From a bacterium (GTDB taxonomy: Bacteria > Patescibacteriota > CPR2 > UBA1875 > JAJYID01): a DNA stretch of 64,000 bases. The first letter of the stretch is position 1, and each line of letters begins with the position of its first letter. Below, piece after piece: positions 10,309 through 46,310 of this stretch. The stretch spans positions 138,523-202,522 of the forward strand of contig JAUSJO010000005.1 of NCBI GenBank assembly GCA_030647205.1, read 5' to 3'. A program made the position numbers and the translations under genes. Under the pieces are notes generated by a model. That model saw nothing but the letters and a program-made list of their open reading frames with translations, had not been told where the DNA came from and searched no databases.

Positions 10309-10317
10309 GCTCTATCT

Positions 10318-10625
10318 GTCATTCCGACCGATACCACGTTAGTGGAAAGTGGAGGAATCCCTTTCCCTTGTCATTCCCGCGGAGGCGGGAATCCAGCCTT
10401 TCTTTAAATAATTTCCACTTTTTTAGAAAAAGTAGAGCAAAAATCGCGGCTTAGACGGCCTCTCAAAGTATAACTCAAAACTTCTCTCAAATTTGAAAAA
10501 TGACAACAAGCCGATTCCGGAAGTCATCTTTTCAAAAGTTCGTTCAGCTTTTCGTTCTCTTTTCGAGCCGATAGCCGCAAAGAGAGGCTTCTTTTCAAAA
10601 ACCATGCCAGAGGAGAGAGTGGAAA
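10318..10625 (+). repeat. Copy 3 of the mosaic intergenic repeat
   Basis: gtcattccgacc...ggaggaatccc, gtcattcccgcggaggcgggaatccag, ccacttttttagaaaaagtagagcaaaaatcgcggcttagacgg, tttgaaaaatgacaacaagccgattccggaag... The last 3 blocks match copy 2 and copy 5, and the first 2 blocks match copy 4. Confidence 0.85.
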
Positions 10626-11612: not shown

Positions 11613-11663
11613 ACTTTTATGCTATAATAAAGCCAATTAATAAAAAATAGCAGGGGTAAATAA

Positions 11664-16883: not shown

Positions 16884-16889
16884 CTCTTT

Positions 16890-17222
16890 GTCATTCCGAC
16901 CGATTTCCTGAAAGGACGAGCGGAGGAATCCCTTTCCCCGTATGTCATTCCCGCGGAGGCGGGAATCCAGACTTTAAAATACTCTATCTACTTTTTTAGA
17001 AAAAGTAGAATCAAAAATCCCCGACTAGCACTATGAAATAGATAAAACTAATAAAAATTTATCATTCAAAACAGCAACCACTCCGTTTAATACTGCTTTT
17101 GTCCTTCGGAACATTCTAAATTTTTAAGTTTTATCCACTATTTCTCCGTGATGTCGGGAGAGAACAAAAATCACGCCGAGAAGAACCTCATTCCGTCATC
17201 CTGAGGCACGAAGGATCTCTCC
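16890..17222 (+). repeat. Copy 4 of the mosaic intergenic repeat
   Basis: gtcattccgaccgatttcctgaaaggacgagcggaggaatccc, gtcattcccgcggaggcgggaatccag, ctacttttttagaaaaagtagaatcaaaaatcc, and a tail ttctccgtgatgtcggga...aaaaatcacgccg...gtcatcctgaggcacgaaggatct that is shared with copies 1 and 2. Confidence 0.85.
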
Positions 17223-17291
17223 TTTTTCTTGCCCAAAAAAATAATTCAGTTTAAAATTGCTTAACTTTAGATATTCAACTAAACTTAATAG

Positions 17292-17564
17292 ATGGATAAG
17301 TTTCAAATTGTTGCGATGATTGCGGGGATAATGGTAGTTTTTAGTACCTTGCCGCAGGTTTCTAAGACCCTAAAAACAAAAAAAGTTGAGGAGCTGTCTC
17401 TAGCAATGTTTCTCCTGCTTCTAGGTGCTCAAACTATCTGGTTCTTCTACGGCTTTCATATCCACGATATAGCCATCATTCTGACGAATGGTATCTCGGC
17501 TCTGGTTGTGGCTACAAATGTCGGACTTATTTTAAAATATCGGAAAGTGCCGGTAAAAAAGTAA
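17292..17564 (+). CDS. SemiSWEET / PQ-loop sugar transporter (90 aa, 3 TM)
   Basis: Three predicted helices with the PQ motif (TLPQVSKTLKTKKVEELS) in helix 1. The size is typical of bacterial SemiSWEETs. Confidence 0.6.
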   Translation: MDKFQIVAMIAGIMVVFSTLPQVSKTLKTKKVEELSLAMFLLLLGAQTIWFFYGFHIHDIAIILTNGISALVVATNVGLILKYRKVPVKK

Positions 17565-17581
17565 TTTTGTCTACTTGTTTT
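17565..17581 (+). repeat. Left copy of a perfect 17-bp direct repeat TTTTGTCTACTTGTTTT
   Basis: Identical 17-mer at 18156-18172. A related copy lies at 38746-38762 (ttttgtatacttgtttt). Confidence 0.7.
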
Positions 17582-17665
17582 TCCTTTGGTGGTTATGATA
17601 ACATCTCTCTATCAATAAGCTATTCTATTCCAGTGTATTGACGCTCTTAAGGAGGTGATACTAAA

Positions 17666-18085
17666 ATGGCCAGAAAGTTAGCCGCTATTCTTGTTGCAGA
17701 TGTTTCGCCATGGCTTCAGACGAACAGTGCTGGAGGGGTTGAGGATAAGAAGGATTTTGCCGGTGAATTTGGCGTGGGAGAATACGTCGAGAAGTTCGGC
17801 CACTATGGTTTCTTTTGGCAGAACAAGGAATATGGGAAACATGTGCACCTAGTTATGTATTCCAAGACTGGCTTTACATCAAGGTTCTCAACGGATGTTA
17901 CTAGCGCTTTGATTGGTGATCTTCCTCATGCAACAGACAAGGTAATGGCACGGCTGGAACCTTGCTTCAAGAACGACGATGACGCAGTTCTTTTGGTGGA
18001 AGAAGGGGTACTTGAGCCTCTTCAGAAGCTATGCGAAAGAACCGGCGTTGACCTTGATTTGCTGGACGTTTCAGTCCACGCTTAA
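17666..18085 (+). CDS. Hypothetical protein (139 aa), GC-rich cassette ORF
   Basis: RBS aaggagg 7 nt upstream. GC is well above the neighbours. Followed by two hairpins at 18096-18152. Flanked by 17-bp direct repeats. Confidence 0.5.
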   Translation: MARKLAAILVADVSPWLQTNSAGGVEDKKDFAGEFGVGEYVEKFGHYGFFWQNKEYGKHVHLVMYSKTGFTSRFSTDVTSALIGDLPHATDKVMARLEPCFKNDDDAVLLVEEGVLEPLQKLCERTGVDLDLLDVSVHA

Positions 18086-18155
18086 TCAGAACAAAAGGGG
18101 GCTGGGCAAAGATGCCGCCCGGCCCTTTAGTGGACCTGAATTATCAGGTCCATAT

Positions 18156-18172
18156 TTTTGTCTACTTGTTTT
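18156..18172 (+). repeat. Right copy of the 17-bp direct repeat TTTTGTCTACTTGTTTT
   Basis: Perfect match to 17565-17581. Preceded by the hairpin tggacctga atta tcaggtcca (18131-18152). Confidence 0.7.
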
Positions 18173-18200
18173 AGGTTTTTGAATTATATATTCTTTAGAT

Positions 18201-19556
18201 ATGGCGAAAGTTAAAACACAATTCATATGCGGGAACTGCGGGGCATTTTATGACCGGTGGCAGGGGAAGTGTGTGCAATGCGGGGAATGGAATACTCTCA
18301 CAGAAACGCAGCTTAGCGTTGGCAAAAAATCCGGCACAAGAACTTCAAGCTCCTTGAGTAAGCCTGAGCCTCTTGGGAAAGCGGAGGATAATATCACAAG
18401 GCTAGCCACAGGTATTGGCGAGTTTGACAGGGTAGTCGGATCAGGGATAGTACCGGGTTCACTTATTCTTCTCGGCGGAGATCCGGGGATAGGAAAGTCG
18501 ACTTTAATACTCCAAGTTGCGGCAAAAGTTGCAAGCGGCAAAAAAGTTTTATATGTTAGCGGAGAGGAGTCGGCTCGGCAAGTATCTCTTAGAGCAAGCA
18601 GGCTAGAGCTACAGTCTGATAAATTGTTTGTTTTATCTGAAACAAATGTTGAGACGATTATCGACCAAATAAAGTCAGAAAAGCCATCATTCGTGGTTAT
18701 TGACTCTATCCAAACTGTCTACTCTGATGATGTGATGAGCACTTCAGGAAGTGTTGGGCAGGTGTCGCTGTGCGCGCAGAAACTGATGAATCTGGCAAAA
18801 AGCGAACACATCGCAATTGTACTTATTGGCCATGTTACAAAAGAAGGGAACTTGGCCGGTCCAAGACTTCTTGAGCATTTGGTGGATGTTGTCTTATATT
18901 TGGAAGGTGAGAGATACGGAGGATTTAGGGTTCTTCGCGGGATTAAAAACAGATTTGGTTCGACAAATGAAACGGGTATTTTTGATATGACGAAAGAGGG
19001 GATGACGGAGGTAGAGAATCCTTCGGAAATATTACTGTCAGAGAGGCTAAAGTCGGCCTCGGGAACGGCGATATTTGCGACCATGGAAGGAACAAGACCG
19101 CTGCTTGTCGAAATACAGGCGCTGACATCTATAACAAGCTTTGGTTATCCAAAAAGAACTGCCAGTGGGATGGACCTAAATAGATTGAATCTACTTATTG
19201 CGGTCCTTACAAAAAGAGCGGGTATCAATCTTACAAATCAGGATGTGTTTGTAAATATTGTTGGCGGGATGGCCATCCGTGAGCCGGCGGTTGATCTGGC
19301 TGTGGCGCTTGCGATTACATCCGCCTATAAAAATAAAGTTATACAAAACGACATGGCCGTTTTTGGAGAAATTGGTCTTGCAGGAGAGATAAGAAATGTG
19401 GATAATGTAGAGGAACGGATAAAGGAAATAGAGAAACTTGGTTTCAAGTCCGTTTTGATACCAAATGCCAGCAAGATTGGTGAAGTGAAGGGCGGAAAGA
19501 TAAAGTTAATCCGCGTTTCAAATATAAAAGAAGCCATAGACGCGGCGTTAATATAA
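18201..19556 (+). CDS. radA: DNA repair protein RadA/Sms
   Basis: N-terminal C4 zinc finger (CGNCGAFYDRWQGKCVQCGEW), RecA-like Walker A GGDPGIGKST, KNRFG motif, and a Lon-protease-like C-terminal domain. Confidence 0.92.
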   Translation: MAKVKTQFICGNCGAFYDRWQGKCVQCGEWNTLTETQLSVGKKSGTRTSSSLSKPEPLGKAEDNITRLATGIGEFDRVVGSGIVPGSLILLGGDPGIGKSTLILQVAAKVASGKKVLYVSGEESARQVSLRASRLELQSDKLFVLSETNVETIIDQIKSEKPSFVVIDSIQTVYSDDVMSTSGSVGQVSLCAQKLMNLAKSEHIAIVLIGHVTKEGNLAGPRLLEHLVDVVLYLEGERYGGFRVLRGIKNRFGSTNETGIFDMTKEGMTEVENPSEILLSERLKSASGTAIFATMEGTRPLLVEIQALTSITSFGYPKRTASGMDLNRLNLLIAVLTKRAGINLTNQDVFVNIVGGMAIREPAVDLAVALAITSAYKNKVIQNDMAVFGEIGLAGEIRNVDNVEERIKEIEKLGFKSVLIPNASKIGEVKGGKIKLIRVSNIKEAIDAALI

Positions 19557-21560: not shown

Positions 21561-21761
21561 ATGTCCGAAGATAAGCCTTTGATATTGGCGAGGAATTCCA
21601 AAGGAACAATAGACGTTCGATTACCTGCCGCTTTTTATAAAAAGCTCTGGTCGGACGTAGCAACTGTAGAGGCAGAAGAACTAGTCCATAAAGGACTGAA
21701 AAGGAGGCGTCTCTCAGTCGGGCCGGACGGAAGGTTGATCCCAATTAACGAGGTGGTATAG
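21561..21761 (+). CDS. AbrB/MazE-like swapped-hairpin mini-protein, paralog 1 (66 aa)
   Basis: GTIDVRLPAAFYKKLW...GPDGRLIPI resembles the MazE/AbrB N-terminal fold (AVRIPATLMQAL...VDGKLIIEPV). Strong RBS aaggagg. Confidence 0.5.
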   Translation: MSEDKPLILARNSKGTIDVRLPAAFYKKLWSDVATVEAEELVHKGLKRRRLSVGPDGRLIPINEVV

Positions 21762-21764
21762 AAA

Positions 21765-21950
21765 ATGCCAAAACCTATCAAACTCGCAAAGCATTCAAGA
21801 GGGACAGTAGATGTTCGATTACCAGATGCTTTTTACAAAAAAATCTGGCATGATGTGGCGATGATTCAAGGTGAGGAAAGGACGTTCAGAGGACAGCGAA
21901 AGAAACGCCTATTTGCTGGACCGAACGGAGAATTCGTGGAGGTGATCTAA
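21765..21950 (+). CDS. AbrB/MazE-like mini-protein, paralog 2 (61 aa)
   Basis: GTVDVRLPDAFYKKIW...GPNGEFVEV. Clear paralog of 21561-21761, separated by 3 nt. Confidence 0.5.
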   Translation: MPKPIKLAKHSRGTVDVRLPDAFYKKIWHDVAMIQGEERTFRGQRKKRLFAGPNGEFVEVI

Positions 21951-22145
21951 ATGTGTGTACCAAAACCAAAAGAGCAGGTTGCTCTCAGGTATACAGTCAC
22001 ATTTAACCCGGATATTCCGACTGAACTTATCCAGAAAATCTGGGCTATGGTTGATGCGGTCGAAGGTAGGGAACGCGAACTGTTAGGGCGTAGAATGAGG
22101 AGATTCGAAATACTCCCCGACGGGAATTTCCACTACCTCAACTAG
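21951..22145 (+). CDS. AbrB/MazE-like mini-protein, paralog 3 (64 aa)
   Basis: VALRYTVTFNPDIPTELIQKIW...LPDGNFHYL. A divergent third paralog that starts immediately after the stop of paralog 2. Confidence 0.45.
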   Translation: MCVPKPKEQVALRYTVTFNPDIPTELIQKIWAMVDAVEGRERELLGRRMRRFEILPDGNFHYLN

Positions 22146-27670: not shown

Positions 27671-29821
27671 ATGAATAGCCCTATAACGCTTAAAACTACA
27701 GTTTCGCAGCTTCAGGGGGTGGGCTCGGTATATCAAAAGAAACTGGAAAAACTTCACGTAGACACAGTTGAAGACTTGCTTTTGTATTTGCCGAGAACTT
27801 GGGAAGACTTTTCTAAGATTACGGAAATTGCCAAAGTCAGACCGCCGGGAACTTACTGTATACAGGGAAATATCTGGAGTATCGGTAACAAACGCTCGGT
27901 AAGAAGGCGGATGTCGATAACCGAGGCTATCATTGCCGATAAAACCGGAACCATGAAAGCAGTCTGGTTCAACCAGCCATTTCTCATAAAAAATATGAAG
28001 CAGGGTGATGAGATTTTACTTGCCGGAAGAGTAGAAAATGAATATGGCAAAATTCTCATGAAGTCGCCGGCGTATGAGAAAAAGTCCGATGAACAGACGC
28101 ATTTGGGAAAGATAGTCCCGACTTATAAAGAAACTGATGGCCTATCCTCTCGCTGGCTCAGATATCAGATAACTAAGCTGGTGAAGATCATTTACTCTTT
28201 CAAAGAGTACTTACCGGCTGATGTGATAAAAAACCAAAGTTTGATTAGCTACTCTGCCATGATTCGCCAGCTTCACTTCCCCGATAACTCATATCAGCTG
28301 GAAAAAGCGATAGATCGTCTAAACTTCGACGAGATGTTCCTCTTACAAGTTGCAGTCCAAAATCAGAGGAAGACACTCGATAAAAACCGAGCAATCTCAG
28401 TCCAGTTTAATGAGGAGTTGTCAAAAGAATTCGTCAAAAGCCTAGGATTTACGCTTACCACAGCTCAGAAAAAATCCATTTGGGAGATAATCAAAGATCT
28501 TGAAAAGCCCACTCCGATGAATAGACTTCTTGAGGGTGATGTTGGGTCAGGGAAAACCGTAGTGTCGGCAATGGCAACTTTGATGGTAGCTCGTAATGGA
28601 TTTCAAACGGTATTTTTGGCGCCCACAGAGATTCTCGCCAAACAGCACTATGAATCTTTGAAGAAAATGCTGGAACCATTTGGTGTAAGAGTTGCCTTAC
28701 TTACTGGCAAAAAAGCCCTCCTTCCTTCCGTCATTCCCGCCCCACCTTCTGTCATTCCCGCGGAGGCGGGAATCCAGTCATCACTGAAAGAGGAAAACGT
28801 GAAATCAAAAAAATCAGTGGAAGCCGAGGTTTTAAAACAGGCCAAAGAAGGGGAGATACAGGTTCTTGTCGGTACTCACGCAGTACTTAAAGAAGACATA
28901 GACTTTTGGAGCTTGGCATTCGTGATAGTTGATGAACAGCATAGATTTGGAGTAGGACAGCGCGCTAAATTACGCCAAAAATCAGGGTCAGATGGAACGA
29001 TGCCGCACTTCCTTTCAATGTCAGCAACACCAATCCCGCGGACTCTGACACTTTCGGTTTACGGTGATCTGGATATCTCGGTGATTGACGAGATGCCGCC
29101 GGGGAGGAAGAAAGTAGCGACATTCGTAATTCCACCAGAAAAGAAAGAAGATTCATATGAATTCATTCGCCAGACTGTGAAAAAGGGGAGACAGGTTTTT
29201 GTCATCTGTCCGCTGATAGATGACTCAGAAAATATGGAGCTTCGAAGCGTCACCGCAGAGTATGAGAGATTATCCAGAATGGTATTTACCGATCTCAAAA
29301 TCGCCATGATTCACGGGAAGATGAGACCGGAGGAAAAAGAAAGAATCATGAGCGACTTTGCGACCGGCAAGACAAACATCCTTGTTTCGACATCTTTGGT
29401 TGAGGTTGGTGTCGATGTGCCAAATGCGACTATCATGATTATCGAGGGCGCTGATAGATTTGGTTTGGCACAACTGCATCAGTTCCGCGGAAGAGTTGGT
29501 AGGGGAAAGTACCAGTCATATTGTTTCCTTTTCACCGACAACCAGTCTGAAACTGTTCAGAAAAGACTCGATGCGATAACTAAAACAAATGATGGGTTTA
29601 AAATTGCTGAGAAAGATCTGGAAATAAGAGGACCGGGTGAAGTTCTCGGCGAACGCCAGCACGGTCTGCCGGATATCAAGACTCAGAATCTAATGAATGT
29701 AGAGCTGATAAAAAGAACAAAAACCGAAGCCAAAAACTTCCTGAAGAAAAATGAAGTAAATGATTTCCCGTTACTCGCAGAGAAAATCTCTAAATATGAT
29801 GGGGTAGCAAATCTGGAGTAG
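27671..29821 (+). CDS. recG: ATP-dependent DNA helicase RecG, carrying an in-frame repeat insertion
   Basis: Wedge domain, helicase motifs (GDVGSGKT, DEQHRFG, SATPIPRT), and a C-terminal domain. About 25 extra residues (LLPSVIPAPPSVIPAEAGIQS...) are encoded by 28718-28780. Confidence 0.92.
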   Translation: MNSPITLKTTVSQLQGVGSVYQKKLEKLHVDTVEDLLLYLPRTWEDFSKITEIAKVRPPGTYCIQGNIWSIGNKRSVRRRMSITEAIIADKTGTMKAVWFNQPFLIKNMKQGDEILLAGRVENEYGKILMKSPAYEKKSDEQTHLGKIVPTYKETDGLSSRWLRYQITKLVKIIYSFKEYLPADVIKNQSLISYSAMIRQLHFPDNSYQLEKAIDRLNFDEMFLLQVAVQNQRKTLDKNRAISVQFNEELSKEFVKSLGFTLTTAQKKSIWEIIKDLEKPTPMNRLLEGDVGSGKTVVSAMATLMVARNGFQTVFLAPTEILAKQHYESLKKMLEPFGVRVALLTGKKALLPSVIPAPPSVIPAEAGIQSSLKEENVKSKKSVEAEVLKQAKEGEIQVLVGTHAVLKEDIDFWSLAFVIVDEQHRFGVGQRAKLRQKSGSDGTMPHFLSMSATPIPRTLTLSVYGDLDISVIDEMPPGRKKVATFVIPPEKKEDSYEFIRQTVKKGRQVFVICPLIDDSENMELRSVTAEYERLSRMVFTDLKIAMIHGKMRPEEKERIMSDFATGKTNILVSTSLVEVGVDVPNATIMIIEGADRFGLAQLHQFRGRVGRGKYQSYCFLFTDNQSETVQKRLDAITKTNDGFKIAEKDLEIRGPGEVLGERQHGLPDIKTQNLMNVELIKRTKTEAKNFLKKNEVNDFPLLAEKISKYDGVANLE
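28718..28780 (+). repeat. Fragment of the dispersed palindromic repeat inserted in frame within recG
   Basis: ccgtcattcccgccccaccttctgtcattcccgcggaggcgggaatccag. The 27-mer gtcattcccgcggaggcgggaatccag is identical to the intergenic copies at 10377-10403 and 16947-16973. Confidence 0.85.
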
Positions 29822-29893: not shown

Positions 29894-30148
29894 ATGGAAA
29901 AATCAAAGTTCATTAGTGTCAAAGAGGCAATGGATATAACTGGATATTCTCGTGTTCATGTTATCCGGCTTATTAATGATGGGAAAATACAAGCAGAGAA
30001 AGTGGGCCATACCTATATGGTTGATAGGAATTCACTCGGCGGGATTTACAAGGAAATGACAGAAGCGGATAAGAAAAAAGTTACAGAGGCAGTAGATAGG
30101 ACTTTCAAGGAATATGGAGACGTTCTAAAAAGGTTGGGTAAAGAATAA
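29894..30148 (+). CDS. Helix-turn-helix (excisionase/MerR-like) putative antitoxin
   Basis: ISVKEAMDITGYSRVHVIRLINDGKI HTH motif. The stop overlaps the start of the Doc gene (ATGA). Confidence 0.6.
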   Translation: MEKSKFISVKEAMDITGYSRVHVIRLINDGKIQAEKVGHTYMVDRNSLGGIYKEMTEADKKKVTEAVDRTFKEYGDVLKRLGKE

Positions 30149-30564
30149 TGAAGCCGGTAACTATCCAGGAAGTAGAGCTGATAGCTCATAAGCTGGCCAA
30201 GAAAATGATGACTTGGAATGAACCGATTCCTGACTTTGGCACTCGCTATCCGGGTATCCTAGAAAGCTGTCTGGCAAATGCCTTTCAAACATATGCCAAA
30301 AAGGATCTATACCCGACGCTAGAAGATAAAGCGGCGATTATTTTCTATCAAATGATTAAAAACCATCCCTTTGTGAATGGCAACAAGCGCATTGCCGTAA
30401 CGACACTTTTTACCTTTTTGGTAATTAACGATAAGTGGCTAGACGTGCAAAGAGAGGATCTTTATCGTGTGGCGGTGTGGGTCGCAGAAAGCCCGGCGCC
30501 ACTTAAGGATGGGACACTCTTGGCGATAAAAGATTTAGTTAAGCTTACCATGGAGGATGCTTGA
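30148..30564 (+). CDS. doc: Doc (death-on-curing) / Fic-fold toxin
   Basis: Signature HPFVNGNKR (Doc motif HxFx(D/N)GNKR). 138 aa. Confidence 0.75.
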   Translation: MKPVTIQEVELIAHKLAKKMMTWNEPIPDFGTRYPGILESCLANAFQTYAKKDLYPTLEDKAAIIFYQMIKNHPFVNGNKRIAVTTLFTFLVINDKWLDVQREDLYRVAVWVAESPAPLKDGTLLAIKDLVKLTMEDA

Positions 30565-31682
30565 AAAATCAGGAAAATATAGAAGAAGAAAGCAACTCTA
30601 AGGGCATTACAATTGGTGTTGGAGGAATACCATTCCCTTATGTTGACTACCTTAAATCCTATCAGAGAAATATAGACCAAATATATGTCTCATCGGGAAT
30701 AAAGGCTATTAGCGATTTAAATAGGAGTATTTTACCCAATATCTCTAGTCCGCTGTATAAAGGTCTAAGGGATTCTTTGAGCATACAAGAGTCCTTAATT
30801 CAGGGGCTTCAAAGGGTGGGAAAGGACCTCACTCTGTCTTCGAATTTAATGCAGGAAACGTCAAAGAATCTAATTGTGCCTTTAGATAGGGCAATCAGTA
30901 ATTTGGGTGGGTTGGCAGATGCACTGGAGGGTACGCCGTATTTACGAGGCGTAAAATTGACCAGCTCTCTTGTTGGTTCTTTGGAAGTTCAGCAAAGTCA
31001 AATATTACATGGATTAAAAACTATTTCTACTAAGAATGACTTGACCAAGTTTACAAATGTAATAAATCCGGGTATTTCTTTATTTTCTTCAGGCATTTCT
31101 AAGATAGTGGACTCGACTTCCGTTTTTGAAAATACACTTGTAAAGGAAGAAAAATCAGAGAGAGCAGAAAGACCAGACAGCAAGGAACAACAGAAGCTTG
31201 ATGAAATATTGAACGGGATAAACACTAAATTTGTCGAACGAAGAAAGGCCTGTTGGGAGACATTTTCTAAAAAGGGCAACGATTATATAGGTCAGTCCGC
31301 AAGTTCAATGAGGAGACTAATAGATGGGTTACTTAGAGAACTGGCCCCAAGGGAAGCAGTCCAACAAACGGAATTTTACAAAAAAAGAATTCAAAATTAT
31401 AATGAAAAAACACTAGAAGAAAAATCGAAGGTTACGAGGAAAGATCGTATTTATTACATATTGGATTATGATAAGAATGAGAGAGACGATATTTTTAAGA
31501 GGGTTATCAAAGTTATTGAATCGATAGTGGAAACACTAGATCACCTAAATGCATGGGATCACGAACCCATTGATGAAGATGGGTTTGTGTGCGGAGTATT
31601 CATAACAATAGAAGGTCAGCTGCTTGCCTTATTATCGATGCGGGATAGTATTGCTATAGAAAAAGGGCAGAATAAGATATAA
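30561..31682 (+). CDS. Hypothetical 373-aa protein translationally coupled to doc
   Basis: A 4-nt overlap with the doc stop. Alpha-helical, with no membrane segments. The C-terminal half has ERRKACWETF...MRRLIDGLLRELAP. Confidence 0.5.
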   Translation: MKNQENIEEESNSKGITIGVGGIPFPYVDYLKSYQRNIDQIYVSSGIKAISDLNRSILPNISSPLYKGLRDSLSIQESLIQGLQRVGKDLTLSSNLMQETSKNLIVPLDRAISNLGGLADALEGTPYLRGVKLTSSLVGSLEVQQSQILHGLKTISTKNDLTKFTNVINPGISLFSSGISKIVDSTSVFENTLVKEEKSERAERPDSKEQQKLDEILNGINTKFVERRKACWETFSKKGNDYIGQSASSMRRLIDGLLRELAPREAVQQTEFYKKRIQNYNEKTLEEKSKVTRKDRIYYILDYDKNERDDIFKRVIKVIESIVETLDHLNAWDHEPIDEDGFVCGVFITIEGQLLALLSMRDSIAIEKGQNKI

Positions 31683-34179: not shown

Positions 34180-34252
34180 ATTACAAACCCCTTTAGGGCG
34201 CTTTAAAAGAGAAGCCTCGAGAGGGGTTTTTCTTTTCTGCTATAATAAAGCC

Positions 34253-34636
34253 ATGGAAGATAAAGAAAACAAAAAACAGAAAATCTATAATCACATTGGC
34301 ATCCTCCTTGTCATTGGGATACTTGGCGGAGCGGGATTACTTTTAGTTAAGTATTCCGATGGGAAAAAAGAACCGATTAAGATTACTGAGCCGCCGAAAA
34401 CGCAGCAGGCGCAACCTGCAGAAGTGAAGGGCGAACAGGTCTCGGCGAAAGTGAATATCAACACTGCTAGCTTAGAAGACTTAGATAAATTAACAGGCAT
34501 CGGCCCGGCAACAGCTCAAAAAATTATCGACTACCGAACCCAAAACGGTCTATTTAAAACAATTGAAGACATTAAAAATGTTTCAGGTATTGGTGACTCT
34601 AAATTTGAAGCGATTAAAGATAGCATAAGTTTATAA
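34253..34636 (+). CDS. comEA: ComEA-like helix-hairpin-helix DNA-binding competence protein
   Basis: N-terminal TM, then VNINTASLEDLDKLTGIGPATAQKIIDYR...GIGDSKFEAIK (tandem HhH). Confidence 0.8.
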   Translation: MEDKENKKQKIYNHIGILLVIGILGGAGLLLVKYSDGKKEPIKITEPPKTQQAQPAEVKGEQVSAKVNINTASLEDLDKLTGIGPATAQKIIDYRTQNGLFKTIEDIKNVSGIGDSKFEAIKDSISL

Positions 34637-37768: not shown

Positions 37769-38311
37769 ATGCATTCATGGAAGGATGTGATCTTTTTGTC
37801 ATCTTCAGATGCTCAAGGCAGTTCGAGGAAAGTGTTTGATGCGAAGACAGAAGCACGTTTAGTGGAATTTCAGCAAAAGCTCGATGAACATGGCTTTGCT
37901 GCCAAGGTCCCGAGGGTCGAATATTCGAACTTCACCCAAACTCTCTTTTTCTACGGCAAAGAGGATAGGTCTAAGTTCCTATGCGGCTCGATTCAACTCG
38001 AAGAGTTTCTTGAGGGGAACGTTCACTTCTCGGATGAAGAGGAAACCGAGATCAGGAGTTGGTACGAAGTCAGTCTGTACAAGCTATTTCGTGAAGGTGC
38101 CAAAATAGAGAGTAGGTTGAGGGATCCCGACATAAGTAAAGACGAAAGAGCGGCCTTGACGTCAAAACACGACGAGATGAAAGCCGTGATATCCGAAGAG
38201 GGATTAAAAGCAAAAAGGATGGATACTCTCGGCTACTATTTCGGAGAAACCGATCCTGTCCGGAAAGAGCTGCTGTACGAAATCCATCACAGTATTCTCC
38301 AAGAATCCTAG
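37769..38311 (+). CDS. Hypothetical protein (180 aa), GC-rich
   Basis: An ORF with elevated GC. No recognised motifs. Confidence 0.45.
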   Translation: MHSWKDVIFLSSSDAQGSSRKVFDAKTEARLVEFQQKLDEHGFAAKVPRVEYSNFTQTLFFYGKEDRSKFLCGSIQLEEFLEGNVHFSDEEETEIRSWYEVSLYKLFREGAKIESRLRDPDISKDERAALTSKHDEMKAVISEEGLKAKRMDTLGYYFGETDPVRKELLYEIHHSILQES

Positions 38312-38328
38312 AGCGAAGGAGGGATGAC

Positions 38329-38703
38329 ATGAATGATCTGACCGAAGATGACTTTATCTGTCCAAAGTGCAAAACGCCTCTGCTCCAGAAAAATCTGGAA
38401 AAAAGCGGCATCCTAAGCCAAGGATACAACAAGTGCGGGAAATGCGGCAAAGGGCAGGAAGAAAAGTATGTAACTCGGTCCATTGACCTTGAAGTCATGA
38501 TTAGACACTGGCTGTCTAGGCTTCTACACGGAGATGATGAAAAAGAGATCTGTCATTTCTGGGGACATGTTAATGGGGAAATGGTCTCGAGCAACAACTT
38601 CAAAACCGAGTGTATCAAGAATGATGTCGAGATAATGGGTGAGGCCTTTGTGGTCGAAAAGATCTTTCTCAACATTATTCGGGATCTTCATGGAGGTGAC
38701 TGA
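38329..38703 (+). CDS. Zinc-ribbon hypothetical protein, GC-rich
   Basis: CPKCKT...CGKCGKG tetracysteine ribbon. RBS gaaggaggg. Confidence 0.5.
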   Translation: MNDLTEDDFICPKCKTPLLQKNLEKSGILSQGYNKCGKCGKGQEEKYVTRSIDLEVMIRHWLSRLLHGDDEKEICHFWGHVNGEMVSSNNFKTECIKNDVEIMGEAFVVEKIFLNIIRDLHGGD

Positions 38704-38715
38704 AGTAAATAAATG

Positions 38716-38770
38716 TGGGCGCGCCAAAAGGCGCGCCCATTTACTTTTTGTATACTTGTTTTGGTTTTTT
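38716..38770 (+). terminator. Intrinsic terminator followed by the TTTTGTATACTTGTTTTGGTTTTTT motif
   Basis: tgggcgcgcc aaaa ggcgcgccca then tttactttttgtatacttgttttggtttttt. Confidence 0.75.
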
Positions 38771-38924
38771 AGATCCATTAGAATTGATATGTAACAAATA
38801 TCAGGCAGTGGAAAACATTTATCTTGAGCTTATCTTTTTATAAGCGGGCCAGCCACTGCCAAAGTGGAAAGACACGGCGACCCCGTGTCTTTTAAATTAT
38901 TTTAATTTAGGTTAATATATTTTC

Positions 38925-40289
38925 ATGAAAAGAAATCGCTATTTTCTCTTTATTACACTGTTCTTCTTACCATCCGTGTCATTTGCAGGGGAGGGAAACA
39001 TAGTTATTCTTGGACTTTTTAGCTTAATTTATTTTTTTGGCTCATTTTTGGCTCTTGTCGCTCTTTTTGCGGCAGCTATATTTTGGCATGTAAAAAATAA
39101 AGACAAACTAAGGTTTTCTTCCTTTTTCAAGTCGAGGATGTTTCTGATTCTTAGCGGTCTTTTTGTTGGCGGCATATTTCTGGAATTTGTAGGGCTTGGT
39201 ATTTTGTATAAAATACTAGTCTCCATTTATGGGAAGGACGAGCCAAGTATGTTGGTGATTCTGGGTATTTGGGCAGTTATGAATCTGTTAGTCTATGGGA
39301 TTTTAATTGTTCCGACTTTATATTTCAAAAGAAAAGAACCGGGTACCAAGGGAGCGGTGATGAAGGTTATAGCTATACCTTTTGTTATTATTGCAGCCTG
39401 GATTTTGCTGGTTAGTGCATTTAACTTATATTATCTTTTCCTAGGTAAAGCGGTTAAAGAAAAAAATGTTACAGAGTCATGTGAAAATTTGCTAGCAGAC
39501 GCTCAAGAAAAAATTTCCGGGATGATGAGTGATAATTTGGACTCGCCACAGAGAGTTGTGATCTACGGAGACTCAAGAACTGGGATAGATACTCATAAGA
39601 AAATTATTTCTTTGATCATGAAAGCCCGTCCGGAAGCTGTCTTTAATGTTGGCGATATCGTCGAGGACGGAAGAAAGCCGGAGGAGTGGCCCGTTTTCAA
39701 TGAAATCACCAAAGATTTACGGGCAAATACAAACTTCTACCCGGTTTTGGGCAATCATGAGGAAGATTCACCTCTTTTCTATAATAACTTCGAGTTACCC
39801 GGAAATGAGCAGTGGTACTCGATCAACTTTAACAAAATACATTTTACCGTATTAAACAGCAACAAGGATCTAAGCGTGGGATCCGAGCAGTATAAGTGGC
39901 TGGAAAATGATCTTGCAAATGTCGGGAAAGATATAAGGTTCAAAGTTGTGACCTTTCATCACCCGCCGTTTTCATCAGGAAAACATGGCGGGGATGAGAT
40001 TAGCTCGGATCTACAGAAGAGTGTAGTTCCGCTTTTCGAAAAATATAAGGTGAGCGCAGTTTTTAACGGACATGACCATGACTATGAAAGATCCGAAGTG
40101 AACGGAATTTCTTATTTTGTTACTGGTGGCGGTGGCGCACCCCTATATCCGCCGGTCAGGAAAAATGAGGTTAGTAAGAAATTTGAAATGGCTTATCATT
40201 ATAGCGTTCTTGAGCGGACAAAAAATGCGCTTAAGGTCAGCGTATATGATGTTGATGATAAGCTGATAGACGAAGCCTCTATTAAGTAG
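38925..40289 (+). CDS. Membrane-anchored calcineurin-like metallophosphoesterase
   Basis: About 5 N-terminal TM helices, then GDSR, GDIVEDG, GNHE, and GHDHDYER phosphoesterase motifs. Confidence 0.8.
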   Translation: MKRNRYFLFITLFFLPSVSFAGEGNIVILGLFSLIYFFGSFLALVALFAAAIFWHVKNKDKLRFSSFFKSRMFLILSGLFVGGIFLEFVGLGILYKILVSIYGKDEPSMLVILGIWAVMNLLVYGILIVPTLYFKRKEPGTKGAVMKVIAIPFVIIAAWILLVSAFNLYYLFLGKAVKEKNVTESCENLLADAQEKISGMMSDNLDSPQRVVIYGDSRTGIDTHKKIISLIMKARPEAVFNVGDIVEDGRKPEEWPVFNEITKDLRANTNFYPVLGNHEEDSPLFYNNFELPGNEQWYSINFNKIHFTVLNSNKDLSVGSEQYKWLENDLANVGKDIRFKVVTFHHPPFSSGKHGGDEISSDLQKSVVPLFEKYKVSAVFNGHDHDYERSEVNGISYFVTGGGGAPLYPPVRKNEVSKKFEMAYHYSVLERTKNALKVSVYDVDDKLIDEASIK

Positions 40290-46012: not shown

Positions 46013-46310
46013 GTCATTCTGGTTTGGTCAGAATCGTATTTGTCATCCTGATGTACGAAGGATCTCATCCTCTCATTCCCACTTTCATCTGTCATTCCCG
46101 CGGAGACGGGAACCCAGTTTTGAATTATTTCCACTTTTTTAGAAAAAGTGGAGCAAAAATCGCGGCTTAGACGGTCTCTCAAAGTATCGTCTGGTTCGCT
46201 CTCTCATCTTTAAAAAAATTAACTCGCTTCTCTCAAACAAAATTCTTTTTAAAGGTTCGTTCACTCCCAGACTTTCTTTTCGAGCCGATAGCCGCAAGAG
46301 ATGCCCTAGA
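46013..46310 (+). repeat. Copy 5 of the mosaic intergenic repeat
   Basis: gtcattctggtttggtcagaat, gtcatcctgatgtacgaaggatct, gtcattcccgcggagacgggaacccag, ccacttttttagaaaaagtggagcaaaaatcgcggcttagacgg, and a module ending ttttcgagccgatagccgcaagag as in copy 3. Confidence 0.85.

Follow-up and report, generated by a model that had tools for sequence, protein, structure and literature searches.

A short promoter-like repeat brackets a lineage-specific gene upstream of radA in a Patescibacteria genome

Minimal mobile elements are sites at which different whole-gene cassettes, or none, are found between the same backbone genes; they carry no mobility genes and are exchanged by recombination between homologous flanks. 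The locus analyzed here lies in a stretch of 64,000 nucleotides from contig JAUSJO010000005.1 of a bacterium of the Patescibacteria group, from an uncultured groundwater clade (the whole stretch is referred to below as the window). It consists of an orphan gene of 139 codons, ORF139, placed between a SemiSWEET gene and the DNA-repair gene radA and flanked by two perfect copies of the 17-mer TTTTGTCTACTTGTTTT. As far as the minimal mobile elements of Neisseria are described in the work cited in PMC1538595 (Saunders and Snyder 2002), the two cases are alike in that the same flanks enclose either no cassette or one of two deeply divergent alleles, without mobility genes, and the mosaic pattern of nucleotide identity and of synonymous divergence (dS) found here fits recombination in the flanks. 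The difference, within the limits of that description, is that a putative promoter element, perfectly duplicated, stands on both sides of the present insert. According to the most probable reading, to which we give a probability of about 0.6, the 17-mer is a reused promoter module, the ORF139 unit was inserted at it, and the resulting module copies drive ORF139 and the radA unit.

Putative mobile promoters, whose families are defined at 50–100 nt and 80% identity or more (Matus-Garcia, Nijveen and van Passel 2012, PMC3488235), are similar to the 17-mer in that the same promoter precedes unrelated genes, within a genome and across relatives, and plausibly allows newcomers to be expressed. At the loci compared here, however, only 13–17 nt are shared and the rest of the promoters differs, which places them outside this definition; the 17-mer is a shared promoter module, not a promoter propagated as a whole. 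As in class II-type regulator-dependent sigma-70 promoters, a conserved element of 13–17 bp is located at about −45 to −29 of the inferred start, and the −10 boxes are weak (TATTCT, TAACAT, TAGAAT). In contrast to such promoters, no regulator was identified, the element is not palindromic, and its internal direct repeat TTGTYT recurs after 8 bp instead of the usual 10–11 bp.

Integron cassettes share with ORF139 (i) the single-gene unit at a fixed site, (ii) the short repeats that bound it and (iii) a content that varies between relatives. No IntI-like integrase was detected, however, in the 40 open reading frames (ORFs) of the window that were scanned, and there is no imperfect-palindrome attC; moreover, the present cassette has its own promoter-like module and ordinary GC-rich terminators, and the repeat appears to be an older host promoter element. 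In Campbell-type or homology-facilitated illegitimate recombination, a crossover at short homology leaves direct repeats around the insert, as observed here; in the present case such a mechanism is presumed. Seventeen base pairs is short for RecA-dependent exchange. The locus differs from prophages and other elements integrated at att sites by its 574-bp insert with a single orphan ORF, by the lack of any tRNA gene in the window and by the lack of a match of ORF139 to the phage families of PHROGs. It differs from transposons and insertion sequences (IS) in that no integrase or transposase domain was found in the 40 ORFs and no terminal inverted repeats around the insert, ORF139 matches no transposase family, and only one site is occupied.

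ORF139 and the empty sites of relatives

The original prediction, made from the letters of the window only, described a GC-rich single-gene cassette bounded by perfect 17-bp direct repeats. Both copies are indeed exact and lie 591 bp apart on either side of ORF139, the left one starts directly behind the SemiSWEET stop codon, and ORF139 has its own Shine-Dalgarno sequence and a double hairpin terminator (Table 1). The description as GC-rich was overstated, since the GC content of ORF139 (47.4%, compared to a mean of 42.5% and a standard deviation of 3.6 for the genes of the window) is only mildly high (z = 1.36, sixth-ranked in the window), and a second gene pair described in the same way (positions 37769–38703) has z = 0.9 and 0.4. 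The near copy of the 17-mer reported behind this pair is present with one mismatch, but it starts a conserved transcription unit and does not end a cassette.

These three matches are all that the 64 kb contain when up to three mismatches are tolerated; shuffled sequence gave a mean of 0.88 matches and reached three in 4 of 100 shuffles. The match count by itself is only mildly unusual. The flanking pair is non-random, because two perfect copies lie 591 bp apart and are kept in relatives. Their shared identity ends at 17 nt (at 20 nt if 95% identity is accepted), and the sequences beyond are unrelated.

The radA neighbourhoods of relatives were compared at graded RadA identity to the window: 98% in L119, 89% in L120, L121 and L122, 82% in L220, 81% in L123, 80% in L222, 76% in L124 and 72% in L125. 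The closest named RadA relatives are labelled “Patescibacteria group” and “candidate division WS5”. In the filled sites of L119 and L120–L122, the SemiSWEET stop codon is followed by the 17-mer, a leader, an ORF of 139 or 141 aa, two hairpins and a second 17-mer; after another ~28 nt comes the ATG of a 191-aa pentapeptide-repeat gene, and then radA. None of these four relatives has a mismatch in either 17-mer.

A single 17-mer without ORF139 was found in the relatives with RadA identities of 72–81% (L125, L124, L123 and L222). The empty site proposed as a check in the original prediction, i.e. SemiSWEET followed by one copy of the 17-mer, is exactly what L125 contains: the SemiSWEET TAG, TTTTGTCTACTTGTTTT, 28 nt and the ATG of the pentapeptide-repeat gene, whose product is 63% identical to that of L119. 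In L124 the order is SemiSWEET, a hairpin, the 17-mer, 29 nt, an ATG remnant of 12 codons, palindromic repeats and radA, and in L123 and L222 clpC is followed by a 16/17-mer, a −10-like box and radA.

In a neighbour-joining tree of RadA, the carriers of ORF139 form one clade nested within the empty-site genomes. Since the carriers are monophyletic within the empties, one gain of ORF139 suffices, whereas loss needs at least four precise events. No ORF139 homologue outside the carrier clade was retrieved by a word search of 5.8 billion proteins, by an exhaustive HMMER search of 1.8 billion representative proteins or by a JGI metagenome scan with a three-sequence profile. The homologue searches also returned two marginal matches (P0122 and P0123, E about 3e-4), and in all data searched the homologues occupy a single site. 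The predicted inserted cassette is thus borne out by the single-17-mer sites of relatives, by the nested carrier clade and by the separate history of the cassette described below; from these comparisons we conclude that ORF139 was gained by insertion in this lineage only, in coincidence with the duplication of the 17-mer.

The 17-mer as a putative promoter module

Alignment A1 of the radA site covers six genomes, with RadA identities as low as 72%; TTTGTCTACTTGTTTT is unchanged in all six, and so are 16 of the 17 positions of the right 17-mer. The flanking genes of these genomes have dS values of 0.5 to more than 1.5. The invariance of the 17-mer despite saturated synonymous divergence, including in cassette-free genomes, indicates that it is under strong constraint. 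Three lineages with the cassette have retained both copies intact, even beside an unalignable leader: the left 17-mer is unchanged in L119 and L120, though the sequence right behind it in L119 cannot be aligned, and its junction with the SemiSWEET stop codon is identical in L119, L120 and L125. Judging from these alignments, the 17-mer is older than the insertion.

The columns TATT.T, located 17 nt past the TTGTTT of the 17-mer, are also invariant in A1 and are followed six bases on by an invariant TATG; no Shine-Dalgarno sequence precedes the radA start at position 18201. We infer from this layout a sigma-70-type promoter for a leaderless mRNA. The same arrangement occurs elsewhere in the window, at 34253 (TATAAT, 6 nt, ATG) and at 38925 (TAATAT, 6 nt, ATG). 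Behind the left copy, the −10 equivalents (TGaTAACAT in the window, TGaTAATAT in L120 and TGtTAACCT in L119, at 17–18 nt) align with one another though the remaining L119 leader does not.

The core of the motif is TGTMTACTTGTTT. In all 15 instances of the 17-mer, representing six independent sites, TAnnnT is present 16–18 nt past TTGTTT, compared to 9.4% of all TTGTTT sequences of the window. Every one of them thus has the −35/−10 spacing of sigma-70-type promoters (16–18 nt) upstream of a gene start; the distances from the 17-mer to the ATG are conserved, and a preceding hairpin is absent in roughly half of the instances. Taken together, these features point to the 17-mer as the −35/upstream module of a promoter class that is reused in the clade (Patescibacteria group, WS5-like). 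The combination of weak −10 boxes with 13–16 invariant bases suggests that it may also be contacted by a dedicated regulator or involve an unusual sigma contact.

Several other identities of the 17-mer were considered and rejected. It is far too rare for a DNA uptake sequence (3 copies per 64 kb). It is not the general promoter consensus of this genome either, as the other promoters are of the extended −10 type TGcTATAAT and lack the motif. The sequences that we take to be the consensus of the CtsR operator and of the LexA box gave no convincing match.

The third copy of the window (Table 1) has counterparts at the corresponding position of L128 and L126. It opens a block conserved in the three genomes, which extends through a terminator-ended region of ~100 nt as far as a metallophosphoesterase gene that is predicted to be leaderless; the DNA upstream of it is mutually unrelated in the window, L128 and L126. 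Further copies were identified in L090 (Patescibacteria MAG, metagenome-assembled genome, H41-bin225_1), which contains three direct copies of the core TGTATACTTGTTT downstream of uvrA (L090:80-5524, minus strand), each with a −10 box at 16–17 nt (TGgTATAAT, TATAAT and TAAAAT). The L090 copies head successive modules of a restriction island, namely (i) Dcm methylase/ThaI endonuclease/Vsr, (ii) a small ORF and an Mrr-like endonuclease and (iii) the next unit. No coding homology was detected between L090 and any locus compared. A collection scan for the 17-mer gave at least ~117 matches among those listed, mostly chance singles in unrelated phyla, with L090 as the one match from a true relative; a scan of viral contigs gave 91 stretches with a single match each, presumably by chance.

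Insertion, exchange and alternative explanations

In the proposed scheme, the ancestral order would have been clpC, the SemiSWEET stop codon, the 17-mer, a −10 box, a leaderless pentapeptide-repeat gene and radA. A self-contained unit, composed of a leader with a strong Shine-Dalgarno sequence, ORF139 and two terminators, would have been inserted exactly at the promoter module in the ancestor shared by the window, L119 and L120 lineages, with the outcome that one module copy drives ORF139 and the second keeps driving the radA unit. Since the junction between the stop codon and the 17-mer is identical in empty and filled sites, the crossover probably took place within the 17-mer or at its edge. 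Most likely this was a single-crossover (Campbell-type) event or homology-facilitated recombination, in which the promoter module would have provided the short homology. The donor may have been a circle excised from an array such as that of L090; alternatively, DNA of a relative may have been taken up and integrated by homology-facilitated recombination. Natural transformation is presumed in this clade, and a ComEA-like gene is present. Both copies would since have been kept by selection, each being a working promoter.

Comparison of the alleles revealed a mosaic. Nucleotide identity between the window and L119 is 0.84 for SemiSWEET, 0.63 for ORF139 and 0.89 for radA, while the corresponding values for L120 are 0.66, 0.90 and 0.79. 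The same pattern was obtained with dS, which in comparison with L120 is 2.0 for SemiSWEET, 0.42 for ORF139 and 1.6 for radA (further flanks: 1.9 for clpC and 1.1 for the PIN gene), and which in comparison with L119 is saturated for ORF139 and 0.46–0.61 for the flanks. In a sliding-window comparison, identity switches at the left 17-mer and at ~18110–18130; the right switch point falls inside the first terminator hairpin, ~30–45 nt before the right 17-mer. These sequence comparisons indicate that the history of the cassette is separate from that of its flanks and that it was swapped between lineages at least twice by recombination. As the right breakpoint lies outside the 17-mer, the exchanges look like homologous and not site-specific recombination, for which the left 17-mer and the terminator region would have served as anchors.

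The ratio of nonsynonymous to synonymous divergence of ORF139 in comparison with L120 (dN/dS = 0.04/0.42) shows that it is a real gene under purifying selection; 75 columns are invariant over the three alleles. In the terminator hairpins, the stem substitutions of L119 and L120, as read from the sequences, preserve pairing, and the second hairpin was listed as terminator-like by the terminator scan. ORF139 belongs to no family in Pfam, PHROGs, PADLOC or NCBIfam, and a PDB sequence profile gave no match. A single-sequence AlphaFold model (mean predicted local distance difference test, pLDDT, 68; predicted template modelling score, pTM, 0.62) folds around a beta-beta-beta-alpha-beta-alpha-beta core, and the structures that match it best are RNase H-like domains (PPX, DEDD exonucleases and IS110-type RuvC). 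None of these matches is significant by Foldseek, and the RNase H-like fold suggested by this model is a weak lead, not a finding.

A further change concerns the right side of the locus. In L119, L120, L125 and L220, a pentapeptide-repeat gene of 188–191 aa is located between the right promoter and radA (L119:1690-2310; L120:5388-6010; L125:5397-6003). The window lacks this gene (18172–18201), and the promoter is fused straight to the radA ATG, which is 28 nt downstream of the right 17-mer. The start regions of the pentapeptide-repeat gene and radA both read TATGGCGAA in L120 and both read AGATATGG in L125. Such shared start-region sequence would explain the fusion by a microhomology-mediated deletion, by which the window lineage would have lost the pentapeptide-repeat gene between the two start-codon regions and joined the promoter to radA. 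The fusion is predicted to result in a leaderless radA mRNA in this genome only.

Several points weigh against insertion at a reused promoter module. The junction between the SemiSWEET stop codon and the 17-mer is also what a site-specific or short-homology crossover in the 17-mer would give, as expected of an att-like role; three of the six independent sites border lineage-specific DNA, and the clade sequence surveyed for the motif amounts to about 170 kb. Promoter activity and leaderless starts are predictions from sequence, and the putative 17-mer promoters were missed by a generic promoter scan, because TTGTTT with a weak −10 box scores under the 9-of-12 threshold. Finally, the 16 invariant bases exceed the needs of a −35 hexamer and must have another reader, be it a regulator, a recombinase or an unusual contact with sigma. 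If a recombinase encoded elsewhere is the reader, the 17-mer might be an att-like core for integron-like cassettes, with the site doubling as a promoter. This would agree with the perfect 17-bp duplication exactly at the insertion, the junction shared by empty and filled sites, the left exchange breakpoint at the 17-mer, the three direct copies that part the modules of the L090 restriction/defence island and the variable orphan genes directly upstream of the third copy. We nevertheless consider it unlikely. The integrase or recombinase that the original prediction advised looking for was not found among the 40 ORFs scanned in the 64-kb window; the 17-mer is neither a palindrome nor structured like an attC, its invariance in cassette-free genomes at a fixed distance from the −10 box and the ATG needs no explanation beyond promoter function, the right exchange breakpoint is outside it, no copy is present between or upstream of the orphan genes at 37769–38703, and ORF139 is known from one site only. 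A broader variant, in which the 13–17-mer is both promoter module and crossover site of a new cassette-shuffling system in WS5-like Patescibacteria, and promoter-gene(s)-terminator units excise and integrate at any module copy by means of a recombinase or short-homology recombination, seems improbable to us; such shuffling would build arrays like the L090 island and seed orphans like ORF139 next to core genes.

It is likewise improbable that ORF139 and both 17-mers are ancestral and that the empty sites arose by repeated deletion. Recombination between the 17-bp repeats would excise exactly the cassette and leave the same empty site, and losses have recurred at this locus (SemiSWEET in L123 and L222; the pentapeptide-repeat gene in the window, L124 and L222), but at least four independent precise losses would have to be set against the one gain on the RadA tree, the protein collections (1.8–5.8 billion sequences) and the JGI metagenome scan contain no homologue outside the carrier clade, and the strong Shine-Dalgarno sequence of ORF139 contrasts with neighbours that are leaderless or have none. 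Very little speaks for transposition, in which the 17-mers would be a target-site duplication and ORF139 either the cargo or itself a minimal, RNase H-like transposase: the direct repeats enclose a discrete insert of 574 bp, and the low-confidence AlphaFold2 (AF2) model weakly matches RNase H-like folds, including IS110-type RuvC domains, whereas the duplicated sequence is a conserved element of the host rather than a random target, target-site duplications are usually shorter than 17 bp, terminal inverted repeats and a transposase family match are lacking, and there is one site per genome and no other copy in any collection. The target-site duplication or dedicated att site of the original prediction is probably wrong: genomes without any history of the cassette keep the 17-mer unchanged, its distance from the −10 box and the start codon is fixed at every site, it heads unrelated transcription units elsewhere, neither an integrase or transposase (in the 40 ORFs scanned) nor terminal inverted repeats were found, and allelic exchange ended outside the right copy. 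No more credible is a functionless 17-mer that is a chance repeat or the mere U-rich tail of a terminator, the latter being the outcome that the original prediction had named as its refutation. The right, third and L124 copies do lie 0–6 nt behind GC-rich hairpins, and their first T residues probably belong to the U-tract; however, the hairpin-less half of the instances includes the left copies, those of L125, L123 and L222 and copies A and C of L090, which a stop codon or other sequence precedes, the invariant part holds GTMTAC and TTG beyond the T runs, and chance is excluded by conservation across saturated divergence.

Viewed as an insertion at a reused promoter module, the locus is well documented but rather ordinary, combining the insertion of a gene, the reuse of a promoter and minimal-mobile-element-like exchange in a poorly studied phylum. 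To our knowledge, very little is known about promoters, regulation and gene gain in the reduced genomes of Patescibacteria (candidate phyla radiation, CPR), for which there is no routine culture or manipulation. The locus offers a strongly conserved promoter module with predicted leaderless starts, and a resolved gene gain with later allelic exchange and neighbour gene loss, i.e. recombination on very short conserved anchors. ORF139 is placed behind a promoter of the type that also precedes radA and a restriction-modification module, which may point to a small regulon for DNA transactions. Were the motif a recombination site as well, it would represent a new way of assembling gene cassettes.

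Features of the window and further variable sites

The coordinates of the features discussed above are compiled in Table 1.

Table 1. Features of the ORF139 locus and of the third 17-mer site (positions within the window)
Feature	Position	Strand	Evidence and remarks
SemiSWEET gene, conserved left flank	17292..17564	+	PF03083 MtN3_slv, E = 2.6e-14
Left 17-mer, putative promoter module of ORF139	17565..17581	+	Exact match; −35-like TTGTTT at 17575-17580
Extended −10-like TGaTAACAT of the putative ORF139 promoter	17596..17604	+	18 nt after TTGTTT
ORF139, orphan coding gene, 139 aa	17666..18085	+	Shine-Dalgarno GGAGG at 17651-17655
Two tandem terminator hairpins	18096-18128 and 18130-18153	+	Minimum free energy (MFE) −41 kcal/mol, z = −5.1
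Right 17-mer, putative ancestral promoter module of the (pentapeptide-)radA unit	18156..18172	+	−35-like TTGTTT at 18166-18171
Putative −10-like TATTCT	18189..18194	+	17 nt after TTGTTT, 6 nt before the radA ATG
radA, conserved right flank	18201..19556	+	Pfam match
Third copy, TTTTGTATACTTGTTTT, putative promoter module	38746..38762	+	TTGTTT, 17-nt spacer, TAGAAT at 38779-38784
Conserved terminator-ended region, ~100 nt	38789..38895	+	Alignment A4; terminator at 38867-38893

Upstream of the third copy, each genome carries different orphan ORFs (window 37769–38703; L128:5771-6820; L126:5597-6820). Those of the window encode 180 aa and a zinc-ribbon-like protein of 124 aa, and the region constitutes a second variable spot in front of a 17-mer promoter. 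The conserved region downstream of the third copy has counterparts at L128:6866-6975 and L126:6866-6975. Presumably transcribed from the putative third promoter, it may, as far as its sequence tells, be a small RNA or a cis-regulatory leader; neither this region nor the rest of the window matched an Rfam family, and RNAalifold detected no covariation in its three sequences. The predicted leaderless gene at 38925 just past it (38925–40289) encodes a metallophosphoesterase of 454 aa, compared to 307–308 aa in all close relatives, which match only ~67% of the window protein; the window copy has ~150 extra residues.

Three short ORFs (66, 61 and 64 aa; 21561–22145) with strong Shine-Dalgarno sequences and without a family follow murB. 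The counterpart region of L119 (L119:5704-6625) contains ORFs of other sizes (168, 73 and 63 aa) and L120 has none, so that this spot, too, may be variable. A candidate toxin-antitoxin or defence module is the small islet at 29894–31682, with genes for an HTH_17 protein, a Fic/DOC protein and a third protein in which a pPIWI-associated nuclease domain is predicted.

A second shared promoter-like sequence, CTTTTnTGCTATAATAAAGCCA, of the extended −10 type, is present at 11614–11646 and 34232–34264. At 34253 it ends 6 nt before the ATG of the ComEA-like (HHH_3) gene, which suggests a leaderless mRNA.

The intergenic regions also contain families of short palindromic repeats (e.g. TGTCATTCCCGCGGAGGCGGGAATCCAG, TTGTCATCCTGAGGTACGAAGGATCTCA and TATCCACTTTTTTAGAAAAAGTGGAG), located at 275–406, 2191–2259, 10312–10471, 16884–17291, 28750–28782 and 46040–46187. 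Their ATTCCC-N8-GGGAAT core presumably resembles the neisserial dRS3 repeats. The same palindromic elements are present in L090, L120, L124 and L222. In the window they fill the entire spacer between clpC and SemiSWEET (16884–17291), which is absent from L119.

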